Source: a virus
DNA: 64,000 nucleotides
Strand: one strand, 5' to 3'
UHGV virus genome: UHGV-0101699
Shown here: positions 3,626-54,068 of the stretch, piece after piece
How positions within the stretch are numbered: position 1 is the stretch's first letter
Layout: every line of letters starts with the position of its first letter
The notes under the pieces: model-generated
The model's input: the letters and a program-made list of their open reading frames with translations, nothing else
Databases searched by the model: none
What the model was told of the DNA's origin: nothing
Program-made: the position numbers and the translations under genes

Positions 3626-3640
3626 TGTGATAATCCTTTA

Positions 3641-3700
3641 AACAATTTGTTTTCTAGTTGGTTTAATTATCGCAGTGGGTGTGAGGTGTCCAAGCGTTCT
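3641..3700 (-). promoter_or_regulatory. early-class promoter: TTGGAC-16-GATAAT followed by AACAAATTGTTTA leader palindrome
   Basis: Motif family repeated at least 14 times upstream of minus-strand genes. Confidence 0.5.
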
Positions 3701-3830
3701 GTTTCGGCAGCTGGTGGCCGTCGGGAAGTCGGTGGGTGCTTCGGTAGCCTGGCGGTAAGAGGTGGGTGTTTTTAGCCTGCGGGAAAGCAGGTGGTAATTG
3801 AGGGCCACCAGCATCGGTGGCCCTCCCCTC

Positions 3831-4130
3831 TCAATGAAGTAATCCGATGTCGATGGTGTCGCCTGAATCTGTCACGCGGATCATCAGCATAGCGAAGGCA
3901 TTCAGTGGATAACCGGCGTGCCATTCCGGGAAGCGGTCATCGCGCATGAAATCGGCAATGTCATAAACGCTATCCTGATAATGGAAGAAGCGGGAGCTGG
4001 TTTGTTCGTCCGGTTCGACGTGATCCATTTCTTTCTGCTCGGCCGGCGACAGGTCAAGCCAGGATTCCAGCCATACGTTTTCTGCTTTCGGGGAGATGGT
4101 GAAATCAGTCATATTTACCACCAGGCGCAA
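3831..4130 (-). CDS. hypothetical protein (99 aa)
   Basis: ORF; stop followed by GAGGGCCACC-GATGCTG-GGTGGCCCTC hairpin. Confidence 0.55.
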   Translation of the reverse strand: MRLVVNMTDFTISPKAENVWLESWLDLSPAEQKEMDHVEPDEQTSSRFFHYQDSVYDIADFMRDDRFPEWHAGYPLNAFAMLMIRVTDSGDTIDIGLLH

Positions 4131-4495
4131 AATGTCAGTCTGTTATTGTAGAAGTCGTGATTTTTAATCAGCTCATCCACAAGCTCTTTCAGCTCTTCCA
4201 CGTCATTCCAGTACCCTTCATCGTACTCCTGACTACCGAAGAAAAACCCTTCCTGGGTAGGCAGATACTCTTCACAATTGCTTTCGTTTAGACGAATCAA
4301 ATCAGCCTTGAGAGCACAAATATCATTCATCGTAACTTCTAAAAGTTCACAATTTACAACTTCACCTACGTTACGGTTCATCCACCCAACGAGAGCATTG
4401 AACTTACGGAAGTAGCCAACTTGCTTTCTGGATGCCTCGTTATTCAGATCGTTTTTTGGCTGCGTCTCAATATAGATATCAAGTCCCATGAACAT
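4115..4495 (-). CDS. hypothetical protein (126 aa)
   Basis: ORF preceded by early motif at 4521-4580. Confidence 0.55.
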   Translation of the reverse strand: MFMGLDIYIETQPKNDLNNEASRKQVGYFRKFNALVGWMNRNVGEVVNCELLEVTMNDICALKADLIRLNESNCEEYLPTQEGFFFGSQEYDEGYWNDVEELKELVDELIKNHDFYNNRLTFCAWW

Positions 4496-4617
4496 TTCCT
4501 CAACTTCGTTAATAACTTGTTTTCTTGTTGGTGTTATTATCGCAACTCAGAAAAGGTATAAAACAACTTGTTTACGGGTTGGGGAAAAATGGCGCGGGTT
4601 ACGCGCCATTGGCTGGT

Positions 4618-5456: not shown

Positions 5457-5592
5457 TACACACTCCGTAAACAATTTGTTTTCTTGTTTGTGTAAATAAT
5501 ACCAGTGTGAAAACGGCCACCAAGCGAAGCGTTCCGGCATTCAGCTGGCCGCAGGCCACATTCATTAAAAAGCCACCTGCTGGTGGCCGTGG

Positions 5593-6036: not shown

Positions 6037-6375
6037 GTTTTTCTCCTCTGTCTAAACACGTTGTTTTCTTGTTGGTGTTATTATCGCAATAAGACATAGG
6101 CGAAAAAGCATTTTGTATCGGGGAGAACTGGAAAAGCAGTGAGTATCCGGGAGTGTATCGGGAGCGCTTTTTACATTATTCTTCTCAACGCGCACCGCAG
6201 GGCTGGTGGGCAGTATTTTCCTCTTCCCGAAAACCTGCTGAAACAGCTTGTGACCCTCGAACGCTCTGGCAGAATACGAATCAGCAGCTGCGCGCAGCGG
6301 GAAGAAAGCCACCTGCGCACCAAGGGGTGTACCGCCAGAGAATCAGCCGTCCCCGCGGCATTTTGTCTCTATACC

Positions 6376-6580: not shown

Positions 6581-7586
6581 CCCTCTCTCTTATATCTGTG
6601 CTCTTTCCTGACTCGAATAACCTCTCTTATGGGGGACTCGTATCTCTCTTATTAGCGCTCTATACGGTGACCATTCGTATGGGAGAAAAGGCAACTTTCT
6701 TCTCTCTGCCGGTAAGTGGTTTTGCAGATGTTGTAGAGGTGGTGGTCTTGTGGTTTTACTCTGGTCTGTATTCTTCGTTTTGGGGATAGTTCTTCTCTGT
6801 GTATGGAGTGATGGCGTGCGCGCTTTTCCTTTCGTTCATCTTGAGAGGTGGAAGTGTGGGTGATGTGGTTTCTGGTCTGTTGTCGTTCTCCGCATGTGAA
6901 GTAATGGCGTTCCCTACTTATCAGGAATTTGCGTTATCTTTCGAGGTAAGAGTGGGTAAACGAGATGGCGCCGGGTACTGTTCTGGCCTGGTCTTGTCTG
7001 GAGTTTCTTCCCGGGTATTCTCTTCCGTGTATTGGGGAATGGCGTTCAGAGAAACTGGCTTTCTCTCGCCGCTTTTTGGTGGTGGTCGAGATTTGCTTCA
7101 TGGGGTCGATAGCCTGGGGCAATGAGGTTGGTCTTTTCGGTAGCCTGGCAGGAAGAGGTGGGTATTGCCTGGGTGTGGGGAAATGGCCGTTCCTTTTCTT
7201 CGTTATCTTGTTTTGTTGTTTTCTTCTTGCCTAAAACAATTTGTTTATATACTCATTAAACGCAACCAGAGCGATTCTGAGCGTGTCTGTTTTGTGGTGG
7301 TATCAGGAGTCGTTTTTGGCGTTTTCGTCGCAGGGTGTTGGTCTCTGGTACGCTGCTTAACGGATATAAGAAGTGACATGGCAAAACGTCAACTTTTGAG
7401 ACCAAATCAGGGTAAAGCGTTGACTTTTCATTGATGTGTTATTTATTTGTTTTCTTGTGGGTGTTATGTGCGTAAAAGCCTTGCCACGCCTGGAGTGTAT
7501 GAGGTTGGAGGGTAGGGGAGAGGGGCGATCAACGAGTTCTTATAGAAATCCTCAATTAGTGACCGCCAATGTCAACGCGTTGCAGG

Positions 7587-10911: not shown

Positions 10912-11014
10912 TGTTTACTTAACTTATTTATTTTCACAGATAAGAAAAGGCAGAAAACAAGTTGTTTAAGGCTATTGATATAGCCTTAAATTGGTGAAAC
11001 CAGTTACGACCCCA

Positions 11015-13490: not shown

Positions 13491-13618
13491 AATTTCACCA
13501 TATAAACAATTTGTTTTCTTATTGGTTTTATTATCTCAGACAAGAAAAGGCATAAAAGATCTATACAGAGGGCTACGGAGGAGGGGAAGGGGGCTCTCGC
13601 CCCCTTGCTATTTCAGGT

Positions 13619-14197: not shown

Positions 14198-14479
14198 GTG
14201 TTTTTCCTTAATTGTTAAAATAATTTGTTTTCTTGGTGGCTTTATTCTGACAATTCAGAAGAGGGGGGCAAACGCGTCATAACGGTTAAACCAGAAGAAT
14301 CGAGGGCCAGGTGGCCCTCGGCGATCACTTCGATTTTTTAAGTAGAGGTTGGGCAAAGTAGATAGCCAATCCAACCAACACGCCATCTGCCGCGATAGAC
14401 ATCAGTTTGCCAGTGAAGTCCACCAGCACGACCAGCACGAGAAGAATGGCGACGACGGCCAGCCTTAATTTCTCTGCCA

Positions 14480-14905: not shown

Positions 14906-15007
14906 GTGTTTTTCCCTATATGTTATGCGCTTAAACAAATTGTTTTCGTATACAAATAAACATTAAGGCAGCAAAGAGAGCCTCCAAGGCTTCTACCCCT
15001 ACGCCCA

Positions 15008-43194: not shown

Positions 43195-44202
43195 TTAAAG
43201 CGATTCTAATTCCGCCAGCAGATCGTCAAGACCCTCATCGTCATTAGAAGTGCTGGTCGCGGCTGCAGTGGTAGTGGCGGCAGCAGCTGATGCTTTAACT
43301 TCTTCCGGCTCTGGTACGAACTCAGCTTCTGCGGCACGTAAGATCTCTTCGTCTACCAGAGATGTTTTTGCTGGTTCCGGGGTAGAGGTCGTGGCTACAG
43401 CGGCTGCACCTTCCGTATGGCCAGTGATGGTGCCAAAACCAGGCAGAGTAGCTGCGCTGGCAGCAGCTGGTGAGGAAATAGCAGCGGTGGCGGCGGCAGG
43501 TGCAGCAATACCAATGAGACGCCCCATGGTGCGAACGGTGGACAGCAGACGAGTTTCATCAGCCTGATTGGCGTAAGCGATCAGGTCATGCTGGGTCGAC
43601 CACAGTTTTTCAGGGATATCGCCCTTGTAGACTTTACGTTTTGGGGATACGTCGTACTTGGTATCGCGACCGGAGCCGGTGCGTTTGATCAGGAACGCAT
43701 AGCCTTCTTCTTTGCTTAACGGGTTGCCGATATCATCTGCGATATCCTCAGACATCACTTTGCAGATATCGTCGAACACAGTGGACGGGAGCTCAATCAG
43801 CTGACATTTTTCTGCGTCGCCAAAGTCTTCACGAGCTGAAAGTACGCCATTGACCAGGTAGCGTGGAGTAGCGCGCATTTGACCGATACGCTCTTCCATT
43901 GCCTTGTTGCCTTTGTAGCGAGCGCGACCTTCCATCACCATCTCACACAGCTGGCACGCACGATTGTGGGTGTGCTGTTCGCAGATATAGGCAGTGGTAA
44001 CTTCTTTGCCCTCCTCATTCTGATGCTTAACGTAGTGCATACCGAAAGTCTGGAAGAACACACCGTTCTGATCCTCCTTGTTGGGGAAGATGCGCAGATA
44101 GTTATTACCGTCTTTCAGACGGGTTAGGTCGACGTTGTTGCCTCGTTTGGAAGCAATATCGCCGCGGGTCTTGTTAAGCAGATCAAGTAATGACTTAGAC
44201 AT
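43195..44202 (-). CDS. single-stranded DNA-binding protein, T4 gp32-like
   Basis: Zn-site-like CEQHTHNRACQLC, Ala/Thr-rich linker, acidic C-terminal tail DDEGLDDLLAELESL; GGAG RBS before ATG at 44202. Confidence 0.65.
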   Translation of the reverse strand: MSKSLLDLLNKTRGDIASKRGNNVDLTRLKDGNNYLRIFPNKEDQNGVFFQTFGMHYVKHQNEEGKEVTTAYICEQHTHNRACQLCEMVMEGRARYKGNKAMEERIGQMRATPRYLVNGVLSAREDFGDAEKCQLIELPSTVFDDICKVMSEDIADDIGNPLSKEEGYAFLIKRTGSGRDTKYDVSPKRKVYKGDIPEKLWSTQHDLIAYANQADETRLLSTVRTMGRLIGIAAPAAATAAISSPAAASAATLPGFGTITGHTEGAAAVATTSTPEPAKTSLVDEEILRAAEAEFVPEPEEVKASAAAATTTAAATSTSNDDEGLDDLLAELESL

Positions 44203-44321
44203 GTATTTCTCCTTGTTGTGATTATGGCCATGGGCGCTTTTCGCTTGGGGCATTCGCTTGTTCGTGGCTCTTAAAAGCGTACATAATAATAGATCAGTAC
44301 TTACTTACTATCTATCAAAAA

Positions 44322-45102: not shown

Positions 45103-45318
45103 ATGTCTAACAAAATGACTGGTTTAGTAAAATGGTTTAACGCTGATAAAGGCTTCGGTTTTATTACCCCAGCAGACGGCAGCAAAGACGTGTTCGTACA
45201 TTTCTCTGCCATCCAGAGCAACAACTTCCGTACCCTGGAAGAAGGCCAAAAAGTTGAGTTCTCTATTGAGAACGGTGCTAAAGGCCCTGCTGCTTCAAAC
45301 GTAGTTACGTTGAGCTAA
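45103..45318 (+). CDS. cspA: cold-shock protein CspA family
   Basis: [38 protein letters not shown] ... near-identical to E. coli CspA; AAGG RBS; about 230-nt upstream leader. Confidence 0.9.
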
Positions 45319-45440
45319 TTTCATTTCGGTAATCTATCCGCTGCGATAACGATGACGGCCTGAGCCTGAGTAGTCAGTTTGGAAGGATTATTGGAAGGAG
45401 TTAAAGGTCGTTAGATCTGGACGGCTTCTCTACTAACTCC

Positions 45441-45472
45441 ATGAGAAAACCCGCCATATGGCGGGGTTCTTT
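45441..45472. terminator. bidirectional terminator hairpin AAAACCCGCCATATGGCGGGTTCTTT
   Basis: Perfect CCCGCCA/TGGCGGG stem with A-run and T-run on either side, between convergent genes. Confidence 0.6.
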
Positions 45473-45914
45473 ATGCTACTTTTCTACCGAAAATGTTTGA
45501 TAGAGTGACTCTGGTCTGCCTCTTAAGCCGGTATCTTCTGACGTCGCCTATCTTGCTCACCTCCATGAACTCCTTGGCCACCTTCAGGACAAGACGGGCA
45601 CGGAACGCTTTAAATGAAGCCAGCTCTTCTTCTGGTTTGTCAGATTCATAAATCTCCAGAAGATATTGGCACGCCTTTGGATCTTGCGTTTTTAAAGCCA
45701 GCGCACGCGCGCATTTCCGTAATCGACAAATAGGGTCGGCGCCATCCTGCTTTGCAAACGCCAATGCCAGATCGAGCGTGACAGGGCAGTCAATGATTTC
45801 CCAGAACTGGGATCGCAGAGTGGCTTCAATCGCCTTCTCCTGAAACTCCTGTGGTATTGCTGTGAGCTCTTGAGCAATTTTATCCGCTGCGCTCATGTGT
45901 TTTCCTTTACTCAT
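45471..45914 (-). CDS. hypothetical protein (147 aa)
   Basis: ORF coupled downstream of the DnaE C-terminal fragment. Confidence 0.5.
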   Translation of the reverse strand: MSKGKHMSAADKIAQELTAIPQEFQEKAIEATLRSQFWEIIDCPVTLDLALAFAKQDGADPICRLRKCARALALKTQDPKACQYLLEIYESDKPEEELASFKAFRARLVLKVAKEFMEVSKIGDVRRYRLKRQTRVTLSNIFGRKVA

Positions 45915-47080
45915 TTGTTAATAGTCTCCGCAACCTCTGCCAGAATGGCTTCCAGCTTTTCTCCTTCCTCTGGACGGAAGTACAAAATATTCGGGTTAAA
46001 TCCATAGAACACGGTCACGTCCAGGTCTGGCAGATATTCTTTGCGCCCAACAAGATCGGATGGCTTGCTCTTGTTATTAAACAGCGATGTCGCCCGGCTG
46101 CCGCACGTCAGCACGTAAGTTGGACGAACCAGATTTATCTCTTCCCGCATAAAGTCGATAAACTGGCCGATCTCATCTTTGGTGTAGTCTTTTTCCTTAT
46201 CCTTTACCTTTTTACACACGCCTGTGACATACAAATCACCCATACGCAGGTCACCAGAAACCAGCAACTTGGCTTTGAAGTCATCGTAGCCGTTCTCCAT
46301 GAAGTAGCCGGTACGTGCATCATTGCCATTGGCGTTGTCGAGTATGACCATAATTTTTGGCTTAATGCCGATGCTTGGTCGTATCAACTCATCGCCCAGA
46401 CCCATTTCTGCGGCCATGCGAGTCATCAGCACATTGACCTCTGCAGAGCGTTTTGGGTTCATTTCAAATGGGCGTGAAGCTTTCACCGCATCGATCACCA
46501 GATTGCCCATCAGCTCTGCCTGATCGCGCAGACGTTCCGGATCGGTCGCCGGCATACTGCCAGGTTCAATAGAGGCGAATGCACCAACCTTTTGTAGAGA
46601 CTCACGTACTCGGCTGTTACAGGCTCGCTTCTCGACCGCTTCCTCAAATTGCTCAAGTGACTCGAATTTGCCGCCAACTTTCTCACGCGCTCTCATGATG
46701 GCCTGGCAACCATTCTCAGAGCAGCCTTTCACAGCAGAGAATGGCGCATACAGAACCTGGCTGCCGTCTTCCAGCGTGCGGATCTCAATTCGGTTAGATG
46801 ACACGTTAACGTCTGGTGGCAATACGCGAATGCCATAGGTCAGCGCATCCTTAACCAGCCCCTGGTGCTTATCCTCGCCCAGAATGGTGAGAGCAGCAGC
46901 GAAGAACTCAGCAGGGTAATGTGTCTTTAACCACATAGACTGATAGCTGATCAGCGAGTAGGCAACGGAGTGTGATTTGTTGAAGGCATATCCACCGAAC
47001 TTCTCAAAGGCGTCCCATACTTCTTGGGCTTTCTCAGGGCTAAGACCTTCCTGCTCGGAAATAACTTTGGCAATTTTCAT
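45911..47080 (-). CDS. dnaE: DNA polymerase III alpha (DnaE-type) C-terminal fragment
   Basis: FGGYAFNKSHSVAYSLISYQSMWLKTHYPAEF matches the DnaE motif region around residue 800 onward; OB-fold tail. Confidence 0.85.
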   Translation of the reverse strand: MKIAKVISEQEGLSPEKAQEVWDAFEKFGGYAFNKSHSVAYSLISYQSMWLKTHYPAEFFAAALTILGEDKHQGLVKDALTYGIRVLPPDVNVSSNRIEIRTLEDGSQVLYAPFSAVKGCSENGCQAIMRAREKVGGKFESLEQFEEAVEKRACNSRVRESLQKVGAFASIEPGSMPATDPERLRDQAELMGNLVIDAVKASRPFEMNPKRSAEVNVLMTRMAAEMGLGDELIRPSIGIKPKIMVILDNANGNDARTGYFMENGYDDFKAKLLVSGDLRMGDLYVTGVCKKVKDKEKDYTKDEIGQFIDFMREEINLVRPTYVLTCGSRATSLFNNKSKPSDLVGRKEYLPDLDVTVFYGFNPNILYFRPEEGEKLEAILAEVAETINK

Positions 47081-47802
47081 GTGTTTTTCCCGTCATTAGC
47101 TTCAAACGCTAGCTTTTTTAAGATATTTGCGATTTGAGTGTTAGAGATGCCGAATTTTTCTCGCAACTTTTCATAGGTTGCGCCAGCCTTGCGCAAGGCG
47201 ACCACCTCAGCTCTTGCTTCAGCATCCAGTTTTTTGGATGCTCTTGAGACAACGATCGGCCCACCAACTCGTGCCCATTTCTTCCCGGTGACGATATGGT
47301 GAATGTAAAGCTCAGTTAAACCATATTCGGCCGCGAGGTCTTTGTTCAGAGCGCCTTCTGACTTTTTAATGCGAATAGCAATGACGACTTCGTTGGTTAG
47401 CTTGGCGTTGTAGCGCCTCTCACCAAACTCAACGGTATCGTGTGCAATGGCGTCAGCCATGTTGTCGACTTGAGTGCCATACGCGAGATTGGAGGGCGCA
47501 TTGTTTGATGGTCTTCCGTCAAGATGACGAATAAGTAAGCCTTCTGGTCGTTCTCCGTGGAATGCAGTTGCTACCAGATAATGGACTGTGCGGTCGCATT
47601 TGACGCCGTTGACGCTTAGTTTCACGCCCAGATGTCCAAAATCATTGATTACGCGAGGTTTGAGGATTTGCCCCTTCTTCACCCATTCGCCCCCATTGGG
47701 GGCTGTTCGTATAACATCTAAAGAGCGAATGCGACCTAAACTGGATGCTTCGTAATAACCTTCAAACTCAGGAATGGATTTCCAAATTTCTTCCACCGTC
47801 AA
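47077..47802 (-). CDS. HNH homing endonuclease (NUMOD4/HNH_3 type) inserted within dnaE
   Basis: EFEGYYEASSLGRIRSL N-terminal module; HYLVATAFHG ... RHLDGRPSNN HNH motif; ATGA start/stop overlaps with both dnaE fragments. Confidence 0.8.
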   Translation of the reverse strand: MTVEEIWKSIPEFEGYYEASSLGRIRSLDVIRTAPNGGEWVKKGQILKPRVINDFGHLGVKLSVNGVKCDRTVHYLVATAFHGERPEGLLIRHLDGRPSNNAPSNLAYGTQVDNMADAIAHDTVEFGERRYNAKLTNEVVIAIRIKKSEGALNKDLAAEYGLTELYIHHIVTGKKWARVGGPIVVSRASKKLDAEARAEVVALRKAGATYEKLREKFGISNTQIANILKKLAFEANDGKNT

Positions 47803-50162
47803 ACTCCAAAATCAACAATATCAGCGTTATCACCAATCGCTTCGTCATAGGTTCTGCGTTTGCCGTCAGAGCACATCAGCTTGGCCTTTTTGTGGACTTC
47901 TACTGTGCTTCCGTTTTCAAGTGACAGTGTCACCCAACCTGCTTGCGCTCGTTCTACAAAATCGCTGCCGATCGCTTTCATCTTATCCATGTTCTTTTTA
48001 CCGATAGCGGAACGCAGAGCGTCAGCCTCAGCCATAGAGAATCCAGCGAGTACGCGAGAGCTTTTCATGATCTGCTCTTGATAGAGTAAAACGCCGTTGG
48101 TTTCTTTAGTTGCTTCCTCAAGACGCGGATGAATTGAATGTGGAGCCATAAAACCTTTTGCCACGGAGACATAGTCGTCCAACATGCCTGACTGAATTGG
48201 ACCTGGTCTGAAAAGCGCAGTTGTGGCCACAATGGTTTTGAAGCTCATTGGCTCGATACCACCACCCAGATCTTTGAGTAGCTTCCTCATGGGGCCGGAC
48301 TCAAGCTGGAACACACCTTGCGTATACCCCGCGGCGAATCCATCAAGTACTTTGCGATCATCCAGTGGGATGGCATCGAGGTTGACGTCCTTACCGGTGC
48401 TCTCTTTGATGTAACGTTTTGCGCTATCCAGCAGATCGAGAGTGGCCAGGCCCAGAACGTCCAGTTTGATCAGCCCCATGGCCTCGCAGTATCGTTTATC
48501 GAATGCGATGCAACGCGCGTCTCCACGTCGCTCTACAGGGGTACGTTCCGTCAGAGGTACGCCAGCAACAATCATCCCTGCAGCATGGCGGCCGAAGCCA
48601 CGCATCAGGTTTTGCAACTTGCTCGCCGCCTTAAATGCGTCCGGATGTTTGGTGGCGTACTTGTCCAGGCTGGCCAGCTGCTCGCGCAGCTCCGACAGAG
48701 ATAAACTGTCATCCTCCAGGGTCTTTAGCTCCTTGGAAACAGCCATATCCGCCGCATCAACTCCATAAATACGCGCTGTGTCGCGCAGTGCGGAAGCGGC
48801 GCCCAGATAAGTGAAGTTCGGAATGCCTGCAACATACTCTTCGCCATATCGGGCATTCAGATACTCGATCACCTCATGGCGCCGCGCCTGGCTAAAGTCC
48901 AAATCCGCATCCGGCAAGTCGAGACGTTCAGGGTTAATGAAACGTTCGAACAGAAGACCATGACGGATTGGGTCAACGTTAGTAATGCCGATGCACCATG
49001 CCACCAGAGAGCCGGCGGATGAACCACGACCTGGCCCGACAGGAATACCAGTCTCGCGACTATGATTCATCAGATCGCGAACCATCAGGAAATAACCGCA
49101 GAATCCCAGGCGAGTGAGCGTTTCCATTTCATACTTGAGGCGATCGACGTAAATGCGGTGCTCGGAAGCTGGTGGCGTGTAGCCAAATTCTTTGTTGCTG
49201 AGACGTTTTCGAAGCCCTGCGACAGCCAGTTTCATCAACGTTGCAGGCTCATCGTCTGCCATTTTTGGCAGCGCCGGCGCCATCTCGTGCCAGCGCCATT
49301 CGCACGCCTTAACAATGGAGTCCTGCGTTGTAGAAGCCATGGCGGCAGACACAGATACGCCCATCCGGACAGAAAACTCTTTCAGAGCCTGCAGCAGATG
49401 ACGGCGACCATTTATTGCATTGTCGCGCTGGTGGGGGATACGCAGCCGGTGTGGCTGATCGACTTTGATATTGTTCATCACCATGTGGGCGATGTCTTTG
49501 ATGTCAGCGTCATCAACCCCTTCGTAATAAGCTGGGTAAAACGCAACGGGCTCGATTTTCAGTGCGCTTGCCACTTTCATGGCTCGCACGTTGATCTGGT
49601 CATAGAATGGCGTAGGGTGTGGATATACGACGCTGTAGAAATTATCGCGTCCACCGGCAGTAATCAGCGCACTAATAATTTTAGCGAAGTCCGGGCGCTG
49701 GAATACGCTGCCGATATCCGAAGTCAGTAACAGTATATTGCCTTTAGCGTATGTAGCCGCCAACTGGTCGAGCGCCAGGCGTGGCACGAAGTAAAACTGC
49801 TCGCGGGTATTGGCTAAAGTCATTAGTTCGCAAATGTCGCGATAACCTTGCTCGTTTTTAATCAGTGCGGTGAAGCAGTAGTTACGTCCACGCTCCAATG
49901 ATTCCATACATCCATTAGACTCTTTAGCCAGTTTAGCCCGGTACTCGTATGTTGGATCGTCGACAACATTCAGCTTAACACCACAGATCACCGCCATCTC
50001 ATCGCCAGCTGCTCGTTGCAGGGGGATAACGCTGGCGATATTCATCGTGTCAGCAGAGATAACCGCGGTATAGCCAGCCTCCTTTGCCACCTTTACTGCG
50101 TGCTCTGCTTTCAGTGCTGATTCTCCCAGGGAAAAATCAGTCCTGACCATCAGTGCTTTCAT
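47799..50162 (-). CDS. dnaE: DNA polymerase III alpha (DnaE-type) N-terminal fragment (PHP + polymerase core)
   Basis: PHP-domain N-terminus; GPGRGSSAGSLVAWCIGIT polymerase motif; ends with a 40-aa tail with no counterpart in E. coli DnaE. Confidence 0.85.
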   Translation of the reverse strand: MKALMVRTDFSLGESALKAEHAVKVAKEAGYTAVISADTMNIASVIPLQRAAGDEMAVICGVKLNVVDDPTYEYRAKLAKESNGCMESLERGRNYCFTALIKNEQGYRDICELMTLANTREQFYFVPRLALDQLAATYAKGNILLLTSDIGSVFQRPDFAKIISALITAGGRDNFYSVVYPHPTPFYDQINVRAMKVASALKIEPVAFYPAYYEGVDDADIKDIAHMVMNNIKVDQPHRLRIPHQRDNAINGRRHLLQALKEFSVRMGVSVSAAMASTTQDSIVKACEWRWHEMAPALPKMADDEPATLMKLAVAGLRKRLSNKEFGYTPPASEHRIYVDRLKYEMETLTRLGFCGYFLMVRDLMNHSRETGIPVGPGRGSSAGSLVAWCIGITNVDPIRHGLLFERFINPERLDLPDADLDFSQARRHEVIEYLNARYGEEYVAGIPNFTYLGAASALRDTARIYGVDAADMAVSKELKTLEDDSLSLSELREQLASLDKYATKHPDAFKAASKLQNLMRGFGRHAAGMIVAGVPLTERTPVERRGDARCIAFDKRYCEAMGLIKLDVLGLATLDLLDSAKRYIKESTGKDVNLDAIPLDDRKVLDGFAAGYTQGVFQLESGPMRKLLKDLGGGIEPMSFKTIVATTALFRPGPIQSGMLDDYVSVAKGFMAPHSIHPRLEEATKETNGVLLYQEQIMKSSRVLAGFSMAEADALRSAIGKKNMDKMKAIGSDFVERAQAGWVTLSLENGSTVEVHKKAKLMCSDGKRRTYDEAIGDNADIVDFGV

Positions 50163-50342
50163 GTGTTTTTACCTTCTGTTTTTTCTTAATTTTGTCGTTG
50201 GGGAAGCCGACGAACTTCCCGTATATCGAAATCGCAACTCCTTTGGCTGCCTGGTGGCAGTCAGGCCTGTGAGCGCATGACAAACAGGCCGCGCCAGTTT
50301 CAGAAGCTGCGATAAGAGATCCAAAACAACCTTTACGCACGA

Positions 50343-51575
50343 TTAACCGAAGATTTTCTGAACCACTTCACGCGCCGCTTGCGCAGAGGTGGAGGGGAGT
50401 TTATTGATGAATGACTTCTCGATGCCGGCTGCGAAATCACCTCGCATCATTCCGATTTTTGCGGACAGAAGCAGCTCACGCGGGCCGATTGGTTGGCTGA
50501 TCAGGTGTTGCTCATACCCGTCTCGTACCAGATTGGCGAACTTAACCATTTTTTCGGCGTATTCACGGATGATTCCCGCTTCAACCAGCATGTTCACCTC
50601 AGCACCAGGCTTCATGTACTTGACGTGAGATACGATGCCAAAGCGAGAGAAGTTAGCCGCGTTCTGGATGTTCGTTCCTTGATAAAGCCCCGTTTCATCC
50701 CCTGAACCATTAGTGTTGCCTGTACCGATGAAGGCGAAGCGCTTATGCGGCGCCACGCGACGCCAGTCAGGTGTCGCTTCTTTGATTACGAGTGGTTCGC
50801 CTTCCAGAACTGGCTGGTAGATCCCCAGAATCTGCGGGAATGCAAAATCGTATTCGTCTGCCAGATAGACCCAACCGTTCTTCATCGCCAGCGACAGAAG
50901 CCCAGGTTCAAAGTAGGTTGTGCCTTCTCGCGCCAGAATCTGGCCCGTAATATGGGCTTCCTCAGTTGATGCCGTATGCTGTGAGCGGATAACCGGGCGA
51001 TTCAGGAGCGCGCAAAGCTGGGTTGGCAGAGAGGTTTTCCCCGTACCAGCATGACCCCACAGATAACCAGGAATGCCGATCTCCAGCATCATGAAGATGT
51101 CTTTAATCAGATCGAAGTCGCCGTATACATAGCCGGCTTTCACTTCTGGCACGAACTCCGGATATGGCGTGTTGATGTTGACCGTCACCTGAAGGGGTTT
51201 GCCTCGGGGCGTGCCAAGTTCCTTGATAGTCAGGCCAAGCAGCTCGTGCGCGGCGACAAGCTCAGTTTTGTATTCGACTGTCCCTGCATAGCCAGGGTGG
51301 GAACTGATATCCGCGATTTTGCCGTCTGCGCCAGCCTTCTCAGAGCGTTTATTCTTTAACGCTTCAATGGCCTTTGGAGACAGCGTTGGTTCCCCGGGGA
51401 ATGCTGTGGTGTACATTTTCACTACGTCATCCACACCAAGCCCTTTGGCTTCTTCCGGAATTCCTTCGCACCGACCCATCGAAATGTGGGATTTGAGGTG
51501 ATGGAAGGATTTTCCGCACCATTTGCAGGTGACGGCATCAGAGTGGGCGTTTTGTGGTAGCGCAGTCGCGGTCAT
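50343..51575 (-). CDS. AAA+ ATPase, CobS/MoxR-like, with N-terminal zinc ribbon
   Basis: CKWCGKSFHHLKSH; Walker A GHAGTGKTS; Walker B YLADEYDF. Confidence 0.7.
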   Translation of the reverse strand: MTATALPQNAHSDAVTCKWCGKSFHHLKSHISMGRCEGIPEEAKGLGVDDVVKMYTTAFPGEPTLSPKAIEALKNKRSEKAGADGKIADISSHPGYAGTVEYKTELVAAHELLGLTIKELGTPRGKPLQVTVNINTPYPEFVPEVKAGYVYGDFDLIKDIFMMLEIGIPGYLWGHAGTGKTSLPTQLCALLNRPVIRSQHTASTEEAHITGQILAREGTTYFEPGLLSLAMKNGWVYLADEYDFAFPQILGIYQPVLEGEPLVIKEATPDWRRVAPHKRFAFIGTGNTNGSGDETGLYQGTNIQNAANFSRFGIVSHVKYMKPGAEVNMLVEAGIIREYAEKMVKFANLVRDGYEQHLISQPIGPRELLLSAKIGMMRGDFAAGIEKSFINKLPSTSAQAAREVVQKIFG

Positions 51576-51671: not shown

Positions 51672-53951
51672 TTACTCTAAAATGATACGAGATAACTCGC
51701 TGACAACTGACGTACCCAACTCTTCGACCTTATTCACTAGCGCATAGTTTTTGTAATACCGGCGCGGCGCGTCCGTAAGAATGCCAATGGCCAACAGGTT
51801 GATGTCACTTGTGTTTTCGATGTCATTCGTTACAGAGCGCAGATGGTTACTAAAGCCATCCCCCGCAGCGCATGGGGCGCCGTCGCTCTGCACAATCATG
51901 ATCTTCTTGTCTTCCATACGCCCTGCAAACAGAGAAGCCAGCTGTGCGATGCTCTCGCCATCCACGTTGTTTAGCAGGGGGAAAGTCTCCGCCACACAGC
52001 CCATACGAGCACGTATCTCTGGGGAGTTCGCTTTTTCATGCCAGTTTTTAATAATCGGCAGCATAAGCGCTTCAAAGCGGCTAAACCCACGTTTCGACAT
52101 AGTTGCTACATCCGGATTGCCATACGTAGTGAAGCCGGTAATGACGTTCGGAACGTGGATACGATCTAGGGCGTCAGCCAGTGTGTATGCGGATGCCAGC
52201 GCGAGCTCGATTTTTCGGCCGCCCATTGAACCTGACAAATCGATGACCTGTTGAACGCACGCGTTCACGGCCTTGTGGTCTTCTTTTCTCCGGAATACCC
52301 GATCGTCATTCATCGACAGTCGGTAAAGACTCGCCCCATGTACGCGTCCACGACGCTGGCCAGGGATGAACTGAACACGGTTACGACTGGCGATCGCGCG
52401 CTCCAGGTCTTTGGCCAAGGTAGATGACACCGAGGAAGACAGATGTCTCTCCACCTTCATCACAAACAGTTTTCTGCCCTCTGGAACAATGCGGTAGCGA
52501 TCTACGGGAGAATACATAGGGATTGCGCCAAAAGCTTTTCTGGCGCGCTTAATATGCTCTTCTGCCTCGTCAATTGGCCCCAGAAAGTCGTAGGAGCGAT
52601 TGTATGGCCGGTAATCAGATAGTGACGCGCTGGCCAGCTCCGACTTGATCGCCGACGCCAGCGCATCTTCGGTTGAAGAACCTATCTCTTCATCGACGTT
52701 TTCTAATGCCTTGAGAGCATCATCAAGAGACATATCGTCAGCGTGTGGGGCAAAGCCGGCATCGCTTTCATCCGAGGTGTCCCGACCCCCTTCATCCTTC
52801 TCCTTGCCACCGTCTTTATCTGCCTTGCCTTCACCGTCTTCGACAGCTTCGCTGTCATCAGAGGAGCTGCCATGCCTGTCCTCTGAGCCATCATCCGTGG
52901 ACGGACTGTAATCCCCTTCATCATCTACTTCTTCCCCTACATCCGAGCCCAGAGATGTAACAGGATCATCAGCTGTCGTTTCTTCGCTGTCAGGCAAGTC
53001 GTCAACATTTTCATGGCCTAAATCGCCATCTTCAGGTTTACTTTCTGTATCATTTATTACTTCATCACTGTTAGGTATGTGCTTACTTATCGATTTGTCT
53101 GATTTTTCATCATCTTCATCGTCAGAGCTAAACCCATCAGGAGTGCTTTCGAGCCCCTCTTCGTCACAAACCTCAGTATCGTCTCCAGCAGCCGGCTCAT
53201 CCGAACTGTCTTCTTCTGGTTCGGTCTTTTTGGTTACAGAGGATTCAAGCTCAGGTAACGGGCCTTCTGGCATCTCAGTCATTTCACGCAGGATCTTCGC
53301 CATTGCTGCAGCAACCTTGACGCAATCCTCAGTGCTATCCATACGACGAACAGCTTCATCGACGCCAAACTCTTTCAGTACGGCAATAGGTTTATCGATG
53401 AGGTGCCAGTGCTCCTCCATGAAATCAACAAAAGTTGGTTGGCCATCCCACGCCCGTAGAACCGGACAGAGGAAGAACTTTAGAAACAACTCGCGTTGAT
53501 CCCCGCGGCACATCGCTACCGCCTTTTTAATGTGGGGATTAAAATATTTATCAATCATTAGGTTACGTGTGGACAATAGGTTCCGCCGGCTGCCGGTGAA
53601 CACTTCACTCATGCGACGTTCGATGTAGACGTCTTCCAGGGCGTTCCAGAGTCCGAATGCCTTTGTGTTGCGCATTTTCTTGACGACTTTTTCGTCTGTG
53701 AAAAGGAGATGGCCAACCTCGTGATCAAGGAATCCACGTATGGCATTCATAAGCGCAGGGCTTGCGTCATCTGGTATGGATGGGATGTTAACCATGACTG
53801 GCTCACCCTTTTTATTGTAGCGAACGTATGCTGTGTCTCCGCATTCAGCTACAGGAATATTCTTGCCCGAAAGAAGACCAACGACGCGTTTTACGGAATC
53901 GCGGAAGTCCTGTACCTCTTTGAGTACAGTTTTGCTGGGTTTGGTTGCCAT
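51672..53951 (-). CDS. CobT-like protein with central acidic/Ser-rich low-complexity region and C-terminal von Willebrand A domain
   Basis: MIDAS-like DLSGSMGG ... vWA fold; start MATKPSKT with ACACATG context. Confidence 0.65.
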   Translation of the reverse strand: MATKPSKTVLKEVQDFRDSVKRVVGLLSGKNIPVAECGDTAYVRYNKKGEPVMVNIPSIPDDASPALMNAIRGFLDHEVGHLLFTDEKVVKKMRNTKAFGLWNALEDVYIERRMSEVFTGSRRNLLSTRNLMIDKYFNPHIKKAVAMCRGDQRELFLKFFLCPVLRAWDGQPTFVDFMEEHWHLIDKPIAVLKEFGVDEAVRRMDSTEDCVKVAAAMAKILREMTEMPEGPLPELESSVTKKTEPEEDSSDEPAAGDDTEVCDEEGLESTPDGFSSDDEDDEKSDKSISKHIPNSDEVINDTESKPEDGDLGHENVDDLPDSEETTADDPVTSLGSDVGEEVDDEGDYSPSTDDGSEDRHGSSSDDSEAVEDGEGKADKDGGKEKDEGGRDTSDESDAGFAPHADDMSLDDALKALENVDEEIGSSTEDALASAIKSELASASLSDYRPYNRSYDFLGPIDEAEEHIKRARKAFGAIPMYSPVDRYRIVPEGRKLFVMKVERHLSSSVSSTLAKDLERAIASRNRVQFIPGQRRGRVHGASLYRLSMNDDRVFRRKEDHKAVNACVQQVIDLSGSMGGRKIELALASAYTLADALDRIHVPNVITGFTTYGNPDVATMSKRGFSRFEALMLPIIKNWHEKANSPEIRARMGCVAETFPLLNNVDGESIAQLASLFAGRMEDKKIMIVQSDGAPCAAGDGFSNHLRSVTNDIENTSDINLLAIGILTDAPRRYYKNYALVNKVEELGTSVVSELSRIILE

Positions 53952-54068
53952 GTGTTTTTCCTTATCGAGTAAACAAATTGTTTTCAGATATAAGAAAATA
54001 ACACTGCGCGAACAGGGGAGGAAGCAATTCGCGCAGGGGATCAATGAGTTATAGGCGGGTTATAAATT

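Follow-up and report, generated by a model that had tools for sequence, protein, structure and literature searches.

When the gene of a DNA polymerase is found in two pieces with the gene of a homing endonuclease between them, it has to be asked whether the endonuclease broke the gene, and whether the pieces still make a polymerase. This question is raised by the dnaE locus of the virus genome UHGV-0101699 (a stretch of 64,000 nucleotides, referred to here as the window), in which a DnaE-type polymerase is encoded on the minus strand by an N-terminal fragment (dnaE-N) and a C-terminal fragment (dnaE-C) that flank an HNH endonuclease gene. An initial annotation, made from the letters of the window alone, attributed the split to the endonuclease gene. 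The comparison with relatives described below points to a different answer: it is rather probable that an already split allele has been spread by homing and that its two halves assemble into an active polymerase.

The locus and its relatives

The window locus is 100% identical to the Klebsiella pneumoniae plasmid pKPN20-2 (IncFIB, 108 kb) and 98–99% identical to many Klebsiella plasmids and “Klebsiella phage” records, while Salmonella phage SSU5 is a more distant match to the dnaE region; the window is accordingly classed here, by its sequence, as a K. pneumoniae SSU5-like phage-plasmid. The dnaE region is present in about 783 plasmids of PLSDB. In Klebsiella phage pJN2-26 and in SSU5 the gene is unbroken and encodes a single DnaE of 1172 aa, and in Escherichia phage Cyrano, which is identical to a plasmid of E. 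coli LF82, it encodes a fused protein of 1168 aa; the two window fragments, placed one after the other (1176 aa), are colinear end to end with the proteins of both lengths. The informative intermediate alleles (designated below by L and P numbers) came from tblastn searches against phages and plasmids, and a homologue search with the 130-aa tail returned short fragments only.

The polymerase halves and the position of the break

The C-family (DnaE-type) signature is found over the two halves, with the PHP domain, the palm/NTPase region, the fingers with their FNKSH motif and the helix-hairpin-helix (HhH) region recognised by Pfam, NCBIfam and PDB comparisons. In Pfam the N fragment matches PHP (PF02811), DNA_pol3_alpha (PF07733) and DNA_pol3_finger (PF17657), and the NCBIfam DnaE models cover it up to about profile position 726; the C fragment matches HHH_6, with a sub-threshold match to uracil-DNA glycosylase (UDG), and, starting at profile position 37, PRK07373, which models the DnaE-C of cyanobacteria. 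In the alignment to E. coli Pol III alpha the N fragment stops at about residue 738, and the alignment resumes at residue 8 of the C fragment, which from there on corresponds to alpha 731–896. The oligonucleotide-binding (OB) fold and the tau-binding C-terminal domain of cellular DnaE were not found, the PDB and NCBIfam alignments stopping at about E. coli residue 896. The last 120 residues or so of dnaE-C (45911–46270) give a weak match to family-4 UDG (TIGR00758, E = 7e-8; Pfam UDG, E = 0.002; both below cut-off), which is why annotation pipelines call the C fragment “uracil-DNA glycosylase”.

These results bear out the first description of the two fragments, namely a 787-aa N fragment with PHP and the GPGRGSSAGS motif, on which the open reading frame (ORF) and Pfam agree, and a 389-aa C fragment that starts just before GYAFNKSH, a motif that occupies its residues 30–37. 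The same annotation held that about 40 residues at the end of the N fragment have no counterpart in DnaE and may be a remnant of the insertion. The first statement is correct for cellular DnaE, but where the phage-plasmid gene is unbroken, in SSU5, pJN2-26, Cyrano and Moellerella plasmids, the tail (WVTLSLENGSTVEVH...ADIVDFGV) does find a counterpart, aligning to WIDVVMEDGTAQRIHRAEHFKCEDGKLRTVEEALDAGVKLPMAVVSVTGSHPGLS of the fused proteins; because unbroken alleles carry this homologous segment, the tail is not an insertion scar. Alignment to the unsplit homologues, which had been proposed as a way of mapping the breakpoint, places the break inside the segment: where Cyrano reads ...SDGIDYVE/IVSEQEGLS (the slash marks the position of the break), the window reads ...DNADIVD-FGV, a stop codon, the HNH gene and MKIAK-VISEQEGLS. 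The tail can thus be described, from these alignments, as part of an insert of approximately 50 residues in the fingers region that is specific to a family of phage-plasmid polymerases; in Cyrano this insert is 86.6% identical to the window tail, and it is absent from E. coli alpha and from P0129, a relative with 58% identity.

Structural models made with AlphaFold2 give some indication of what the insert looks like. In the fused Cyrano-type protein (mean predicted local distance difference test score, pLDDT, 80.8) strands are predicted at 743–748 and 753–757, a helix at 772–777 and a further strand at 782–789. In an artificial fusion of the window N and C fragments (mean pLDDT 78.7) the blocks over 741–800 score 76–89, with beta-bridges at 782, 784, 786 and 788 followed by a strand at 790–797; in these models the pLDDT of the insert is 75–90. 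Deep fused alleles (from Moellerella, Xenorhabdus and others) read GVDLIVD-DK-TVASVIAG or similar, with typical turn residues. The chain break of the split alleles looks as if it falls at the turn of a beta-hairpin, between two beta segments, and in such a model the N-tail and the head of the C fragment could pair as neighbouring strands.

An imported tract centred on the endonuclease gene

The mosaic structure of the locus, mapped by sliding identity and by runs of informative sites, gives the clearest view of how the split reached this plasmid. From 50400 to approximately 48201, and again from approximately 46625 to 45400, the window shares about 99% identity with pJN2-26. Between 48168 and 46653, 235 of 237 informative sites match the Enterobacter hormaechei plasmid pTUECL19001-1 (L004), the longest unbroken run of such matches (228 sites) extending from 48156 to 46673. 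This tract of 1.5 kb is more than 99% identical to L004 and is centred on the endonuclease gene; its breakpoints lie at 48201–48168 and 46653–46625, with runs matching pJN2-26 on both sides, and outside the tract the SSU5-like backbone of L004 is only about 82% identical to the window. The flanks that belong to the tract measure approximately 370–400 bp upstream and 430–450 bp downstream of the endonuclease gene, and the downstream flank includes about 300 bp of plain SSU5-type sequence (46927–46640). The tract was, then, copied from a plasmid of the SSU5/Enterobacter type into a Klebsiella backbone that is most closely related to one with the gene in one piece, and in the Klebsiella lineage of the window the break and the endonuclease arrived together.

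Presence and absence of an endonuclease alternate in three pairs of nearly identical backbones: the window and pJN2-26, L004 and L006 against SSU5, and L008 against Cyrano, the last with a different endonuclease (HNH2, see below). For HNH2, the synonymous divergence (dS) between E. coli and Cronobacter plasmids is 0.32, compared with 1.1–1.4 in the flanking dnaE. Co-conversion of flanking sequence is a classical signature of double-strand-break repair seeded at the site of a homing endonuclease (PMC2988022), and we infer from the pattern of the patch that homing with co-conversion took place here, the enzymatic step included.

The fused dnaE of Cyrano (L007, compared with window positions 48450–46765) is itself a mosaic, in which a backbone of the E. 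coli type is followed by an SSU5-like stretch and then by sequence that resembles the flanks of the cassette (85–94% identical to the window flanks) without an endonuclease. This arrangement is consistent with repeated gene conversion at the break site of dnaE.

Other occupants of the same break

The same break is found with quite different contents, and across the split lineages the junction residues are homologous: the N fragment ends in ..ADI(V/T/I)xFxx and a stop codon, and the C fragment starts with MK(I/V)... In L008 and L014 (25 plasmids of E. coli, Enterobacter and Cronobacter) the break holds HNH2, an unrelated protein with NUMOD3 and HNH_3 domains. In L009, L012 and L013 (29 Klebsiella plasmids, among them K. 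oxytoca at 82% nucleotide identity) it holds a 70-nt spacer alone, and two further lineages, L015 and L016, have spacers of 72 and 84 nt and no endonuclease. The distant split lineage L017 (54% identity) has an ORF of 184 aa in the gap (3681–4235), which had no match in Pfam, NCBIfam or PHROG and may be an unrecognised endonuclease or other selfish cargo. Acinetobacter plasmids (L010, in 95–119 plasmids) carry a NUMOD4/HNH protein that is 43% identical to that of the window. In one of the Acinetobacter loci (L018, A. baumannii NZ_CP107594, 1683–1874) an internal deletion of 391 nt has removed, among other parts, the HNH motif and left a remnant of 63 aa, with both polymerase halves intact; here the decay of the endonuclease is caught while the split persists. 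Among database homologues, N proteins of split length (784–792 aa) and fused proteins (1167–1210 aa) alternate at every level of divergence; a look-up of one split protein, P0113 of Xenorhabdus, gave no contig.

The initial annotation had stated beforehand that the same split in related genomes without an endonuclease would speak against the endonuclease gene as its cause, and such splits are what L009/L013, L015 and L016 contain. As the same break occurs without an endonuclease, with an unrelated HNH protein and with an ORF of another kind, the HNH gene of the window did not create the split, and it is best regarded as what now occupies a split allele that is older and mobile.

The spacer of L009, when searched for remnants of an endonuclease, resembled the window only in the ribosome-binding stretch before the ATG of the C fragment. 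A palindrome, GAAAACAAnTTGTTT, lies in the gap of L008/L014, L009/L013, L010 and L016. In the form (T/A)AAACAAnTTGTTT(A/T) it has 23 strand matches in the window, against 0.55 expected, outside the dnaE gap of the window itself (Table 1), and many of these sites lie 13–65 nt upstream of the start of minus-strand ORFs; it probably serves the phage-plasmid as an operator or a promoter element.

The endonuclease

The middle ORF matches HNH_3 (4e-11) and NUMOD4 (3e-10) in Pfam, with a weak helix-turn-helix (HTH) match, and the HNH families of PHROG match strongly (PHROG 59, E = 9e-45). Its only relative of solved structure is I-HmuI (PDB 1U3E, E = 7.5e-10, residues 5–171), an enzyme that nicks one strand and whose gene lies within a self-splicing group I intron. 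By these matches the middle gene is classified as a free-standing HNH homing endonuclease related to I-HmuI. It is found in 243 PLSDB plasmids (Klebsiella 181, Enterobacter 44, Citrobacter 8, Escherichia 7, Salmonella 2, Kluyvera 1), and it adjoins or sits within dnaE in every listed match with an informative annotation and in every locus that was fetched. Copies are more than 99% identical between genera (Klebsiella and Enterobacter), and between diverged copies the ratio of nonsynonymous to synonymous substitution rates (dN/dS) is 0.10–0.17, from which it follows that the gene is maintained.

Junctions between the three genes

The coordinates of the features are collected in Table 1.

Table 1. 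Features of the split dnaE locus and related elements, in window coordinates
Feature	Position	Strand	Basis
dnaE-N, 787-aa N-terminal polymerase fragment (PHP, palm/NTPase, most of the fingers)	47799..50162	-	ORF, Pfam, NCBIfam, alignment to E. coli alpha
NUMOD4/HNH_3/HTH free-standing homing endonuclease gene (predicted), 241 aa from TTG 47802, probably 239 aa from GTG 47796	47077..47802	-	Pfam, 1U3E, PHROG
dnaE-C, 389-aa C-terminal fragment (GYAFNKSH finger motif, HhH, UDG-family-4-like C-terminal domain)	45911..47080	-	ORF, Pfam, alignment
GGAG Shine-Dalgarno-like motif, 7 nt upstream of GTG 47796, within the last dnaE-N codons	47804..47807	-	sequence
A6 run, 1-nt deletion relative to A7 of other carriers	47114..47119	-	junctions of the window, L004, L005 and L006 compared
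N-fragment residues 743–787, N-side half of the family-specific beta-rich insert	47802..47936	-	fused relatives, AlphaFold2
Imported recombinant tract (co-conversion patch): dnaE-N tail, endonuclease gene, dnaE-C head	46653..48168	.	informative sites
147-aa downstream ORF, ATG overlapping the dnaE-C stop (ATGA); context only	45471..45914	-	ORF, sequence
Palindrome sites (with further, weaker ones)	3639-3653, 4560-4574, 5468-5482, 6053-6067, 7233-7247, 10954-10968, 13503-13517, 14217-14231, 14932-14946, 53970-53984		

The idea that all three junctions are ATGA overlaps, which would couple the translation of the genes, has to be corrected. At the junction between dnaE-N and the endonuclease gene (“...gat ttt gga gtt TGA cgG TGg aag”) it is a TTG (TTGA) and not an ATG that overlaps the stop codon, and the annotation of pKPN20-2 by the Prokaryotic Genome Annotation Pipeline (PGAP) starts the endonuclease coding sequence (CDS) at GTG 47796; placed behind GGAG, this GTG is the likelier start, so that the reported endonuclease of 241 aa, although confirmed if read from TTG, more likely has 239 aa. 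The junction between the endonuclease gene and dnaE-C does read ATGA (“aca TGA” overlapping “ATG aaa”, 47077–47080), but the overlap exists only in the sub-lineage of the window, because a 1-nt deletion in the A-run lengthens the window ORF by 8 codons and changes its C-terminus to LAFEANDGKNT followed by the stop. In the three other carriers compared base by base (L004–L006) the endonuclease ends in ...ILKKAS(V/I) and a stop codon about 21 nt before the ATG of the C fragment, and translational coupling at this junction is therefore not a conserved feature. The third junction, between dnaE-C and the next ORF, is ATGA (45911–45914) as described, and the same overlap is present in the endonuclease-less L009. 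A consensus scan of 45700–50500 found no sigma-70-like promoter, and the terminator-like sites in it were at or below shuffle expectation; co-transcription of the three genes is assumed.

No sign of an intron, an intein or a bypass element

Rfam 15, searched at E<=1 on both strands of 45400–50400, gave 0 matches, and Pfam gave no Hint or intein domain. The insert consists of exactly one ORF, which lies behind the stop codon of dnaE-N and in another frame, with no non-coding sequence between the three ORFs, and the overlapping stop and start codons leave no room for a ribozyme. In addition, the residues of the tail and the head persist in the fused homologues and are therefore not excised. On these grounds a group I intron was rejected (Rfam is empty at E<=1 and there is no non-coding space), as was an intein or split intein (there is no Hint domain, the endonuclease is read in a different frame and the fused proteins keep the flanks); as far as sequence analysis reaches, intron, intein and split intein are excluded. 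The 70-nt gap of L009 has a Lys codon before the stop and AAG after the ATG. Translational bypass was also rejected as the main route across the endonuclease-less gaps, given that the C fragment has its own Shine-Dalgarno (SD) motif and ATG and a conserved MK(I/V) start everywhere, and that the codon match fails in L015 and in the window. The earlier proposals that this is a split gene and not an intron, and that the polymerase is encoded as two polypeptides, are both upheld by the lack of an Rfam match, of spare non-coding RNA in the insert and of an intein, and by the presence of two separate ORFs.

Selection on the two halves

Both ORFs are open in all the split loci examined, at identities down to 47–54%, and an SD-like motif is found 6–10 nt before the ATG of the C fragment in every split lineage. 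Values of dN/dS were estimated by the Nei-Gojobori method. In the endonuclease-less lineage, in which dS is about 1.6, they are 0.036 for the N fragment and 0.032 for the C fragment, with 0.07 for the tail (N 741 to the end) and 0.03 for the head (C 1–40); in the HNH2 lineage they are 0.036 (N) and 0.020 (C). Between variants of the window-type cassette, N 656–787 gives 0.04–0.10 and C 1–45 gives 0.016–0.025, and the values for N 746–787 are 0.03, 0.17 and 0.70, the last of these from only 7 substitutions. Both halves are under strong purifying selection, and this suggests that the two fragments form a working two-subunit polymerase.

Origin and spread of the split allele

The sequence of events favoured here begins when two phage-plasmids share a cell. 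The endonuclease of one would cut or nick the unbroken dnaE of the other, and repair from the endonuclease-bearing allele would copy the gene together with about 400 bp of each flank; since the stop codon, the ribosome-binding sites and the start codon lie inside the copied tract, the unbroken gene would become a split one. The three genes would then be co-transcribed, the endonuclease being translated from GTG 47796 behind GGAG and dnaE-C from its own ATG behind a purine-rich site, and the fragments would assemble non-covalently into an active enzyme. The insert may form part of the interface, with the N-tail strand ADIVDF and the C-head strand IAKVIS flanking the hairpin-like turn at which the chain is broken. 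As to the origin, the favoured view is that an endonuclease gene inserted once, long ago, at the hairpin turn; this would have been followed by spread through homing, by the decay, loss or replacement of the endonuclease and, occasionally, by re-fusion through deletion to give alleles of the Cyrano type.

Neighbour-joining (NJ) trees of two parts of the gene disagree. In the tree of the backbone (N 1–600) each split allele of the crown group pairs with a fused partner; in the tree of the site-proximal part (N 640–787) all crown-group split alleles form a clade with the deep split lineages. The fused alleles of Cyrano and P0099 nest inside this split clade and both are without turn residues, so that re-fusion by deletion is suggested for them. 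The fused alleles of the SSU5 type keep a Met that is aligned with the initiator of the C fragment.

A number of points weigh against this reading. The assembly and activity of the fragments, like cleavage by the endonuclease, are steps that we infer, and the pairing of N-tail and C-head is a suggestion from an AlphaFold2 model that was built on an artificial fusion. The host replisome could maintain the phage-plasmid, so that selection on dnaE may act only in lytic growth, and in rare derivatives part of dnaE is deleted (P0123). The patch could also come, without any endonuclease, from ordinary homologous recombination of plasmids that share a cell. The NJ trees were built on short, recombining segments. 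Finally, the Acinetobacter outgroup and several deep lineages are split, so that the ancestral gene may have been in two parts and every fused allele derived from it.

The alternatives differ widely in how well they fit. That both ORFs are decaying relics, tolerated because the host replisome replicates the plasmid, would agree with the omission of the C fragment by PGAP in several records, or its naming as a uracil-DNA glycosylase, and with the rare internal-deletion derivatives, but intact ORFs in every split locus at identities down to 47–54%, dN/dS of 0.02–0.04 with dS >1, and the retained catalytic and finger motifs make a pseudogene highly improbable. It is scarcely credible that the halves are rejoined by a group I or II intron, by an intein, split or otherwise, or by ribosomal bypass: phage DNA-metabolism genes and the like do provide precedents (the SPO1 polymerase intron with I-HmuI, the cyanobacterial DnaE split intein and the T4 gene 60 bypass), yet the Rfam and Hint searches were empty, the insert is one out-of-frame ORF with its flanks retained in fused proteins, the gap in the window is 718 nt long, and every lineage provides the C fragment with an SD and an ATG of its own. 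Somewhat less remote, though still very unlikely, is a de novo insertion of this particular HNH gene into an intact dnaE of the window lineage, which would have made the split and left the N-tail as a scar. Close relatives with an unbroken gene do lack the endonuclease, and in the window the endonuclease gene fits exactly between the halves; however, the tail is homologous to sequence of unbroken alleles, the stop, the start and about 400 bp per flank came together from an already split donor, and the same break, with homologous junction residues (..ADI..F.. and stop, MKI..), occurs with other occupants or with none.

A more serious, if still doubtful, contender is an ancestral two-gene state, in which the split arose without an endonuclease (for example, by a small insertion that brought in a stop, a start and a promoter/operator palindrome), various homing endonucleases settled in the gap afterwards, and all the fused alleles are re-fusions. 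Split alleles in the outgroup and in several deep lineages speak for it, as do the regulatory palindrome GAAAACAAnTTGTTT in the gaps named above, the resemblance between the window type and the endonuclease-less L009 in the ribosome-binding region ahead of the C-fragment ATG, the Met at the C-fragment initiator position of SSU5-type fused alleles, and the Cyrano-type fused alleles that are nested among split ones and lack turn residues; the same ambiguity is on record for gene 43 of phages 25 and 44RR. Against it stand the deep fused alleles (Moellerella, Xenorhabdus and others) with a well-formed hairpin-like segment and typical turn residues, the unbroken state of cellular DnaE, and the presence of a homologous NUMOD4 endonuclease at the site in plasmids of both Acinetobacter and Enterobacteriaceae. 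Moreover, in L018 the endonuclease decayed while the split stayed, and endonuclease-less splits therefore need not be primitive. A related and equally tentative proposal, possible but not to be preferred, is that the insert is a dedicated heterodimerisation module, the two-subunit form being the ancestral or default one, the SSU5-type alleles (with their internal Met) and the Cyrano-type alleles (with a collapsed hairpin) secondary re-fusions, and the gap with its operator palindrome a regulated point of entry that successive unrelated endonucleases have colonised and abandoned. If this is true, the locus offers a natural, intein-free, self-assembling split polymerase of the C family, together with a complete and densely sampled homing cycle at one codon, from gain through decay, loss and replacement to re-fusion.

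Relation to known split genes

Genes in pieces that are associated with endonucleases are well known, and the split DnaE described here is a further case. The closest analogue is gene 43 (43A/43B), which encodes the family-B polymerase of the T4-like Aeromonas phages 25 and 44RR, and whose fragments co-purify and are active (PMC2988022). There too a replicative polymerase is broken at one position and the gap holds either an endonuclease or a spacer: one phage has a free-standing seg endonuclease and its relative only an untranslated spacer, and it is uncertain whether seg made the split or invaded an existing one (PMC2988022). The two systems differ in that gene 43 belongs to virulent myoviruses and is associated with a seg enzyme of the GIY-YIG type, whereas the present case involves a C-family DnaE, HNH enzymes and temperate phage-plasmids; in addition, the gap here has contents of four kinds or more and the carriers, known from their sequences, number in the hundreds, whereas the gene 43 fragments have been studied biochemically. 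In the Aeromonas phage Aeh1, nrdA is split by the HNH gene mobE and its halves form an active enzyme (PMC2988022). This arrangement is alike in that a free-standing HNH gene separates the two halves of an essential gene of DNA metabolism which relatives have in one piece, but the host gene is another one and the insertion is taken as the cause of the split, whereas in dnaE the split is also found without an endonuclease.

With I-HmuI of the Bacillus phage SPO1 the window enzyme shares the architecture (a NUMOD4-like N-terminus, HNH and helical DNA-binding parts) and a phage DNA polymerase gene as target; it differs in being free-standing, without an intron, and in that its cleavage is a prediction. 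The halves of cyanobacterial DnaE are encoded far apart in the genome and are ligated by protein trans-splicing. Like dnaE-N and dnaE-C, the genes dnaE-n and dnaE-c encode a C-family polymerase in two pieces of similar sizes that is broken near FNKSH. In that case, however, a split intein rejoins the pieces; here there is none, the halves are adjacent, the break lies about 31 residues further upstream, and the association must stay non-covalent. The cyanobacterial intein site, just before FNKSH, was located with NCBIfam, and the closeness of the two breaks indicates a structurally permissive spot in DnaE. The T4 topoisomerase genes 39 and 60, with mobA, are alike in that the gene of an essential enzyme is split in association with a homing endonuclease and the products come together as subunits, but gene 60 contains a translational bypass element of 50 nt and no such element is indicated in the window.

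Searches of the full-text literature for a dnaE in two pieces in SSU5-like elements or phage-plasmids found no published account, and to judge from them this is the first replicative polymerase of the C family that is split and has no intein. The arrangement occurs in hundreds of sequenced phage-plasmids from clinical Klebsiella, Enterobacter, E. coli and Acinetobacter. One codon shows all the stages of homing, that is, the gene unbroken, split with a live, dead, unrelated or no endonuclease, and probably re-fused, and the tracts of co-conversion are clear, which makes the locus a convenient natural system for the study of endonuclease-driven mosaicism between phage-plasmids of different genera.

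Annotation of the locus and neighbouring genes

The PLSDB gene tables of L003, L004, L005, L006, L008 and L009 do not have the C fragment among the listed CDSs in several RefSeq plasmids, and some records list neither half; the unlisted fragment has probably been flagged as a pseudogene. In Acinetobacter and in some GenBank records it is named uracil-DNA glycosylase. Since pipelines treat the locus inconsistently, the gene content and the pseudogene counts given for this group of plasmids are wrong.

In P0123 the internal deletion joins residue 476 or thereabouts to the C-terminal region. In P0128 and P0095, dnaE is fused to a RecA/UvsX-like protein, and the joined sequence has an intein-like junction (...NGIISHN/T), which suggests that the neighbouring recombinase gene of some E. 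coli phage-plasmids carries an intein.

Directly upstream of dnaE, on the minus strand, lie the genes of an AAA_5 ATPase (CobS-like, 50343–51575) and of a large acidic vWA/CobT-like protein (51672–54044), a pairing that is kept in relatives. Just downstream of the dnaE cluster, on the opposite strand, there is a cold-shock gene of the CspA family (45103–45318, plus strand), and a gp32-like single-strand-binding protein with a long acidic tail rich in Ala, Thr and Glu is encoded at 43195–44253 (minus strand).

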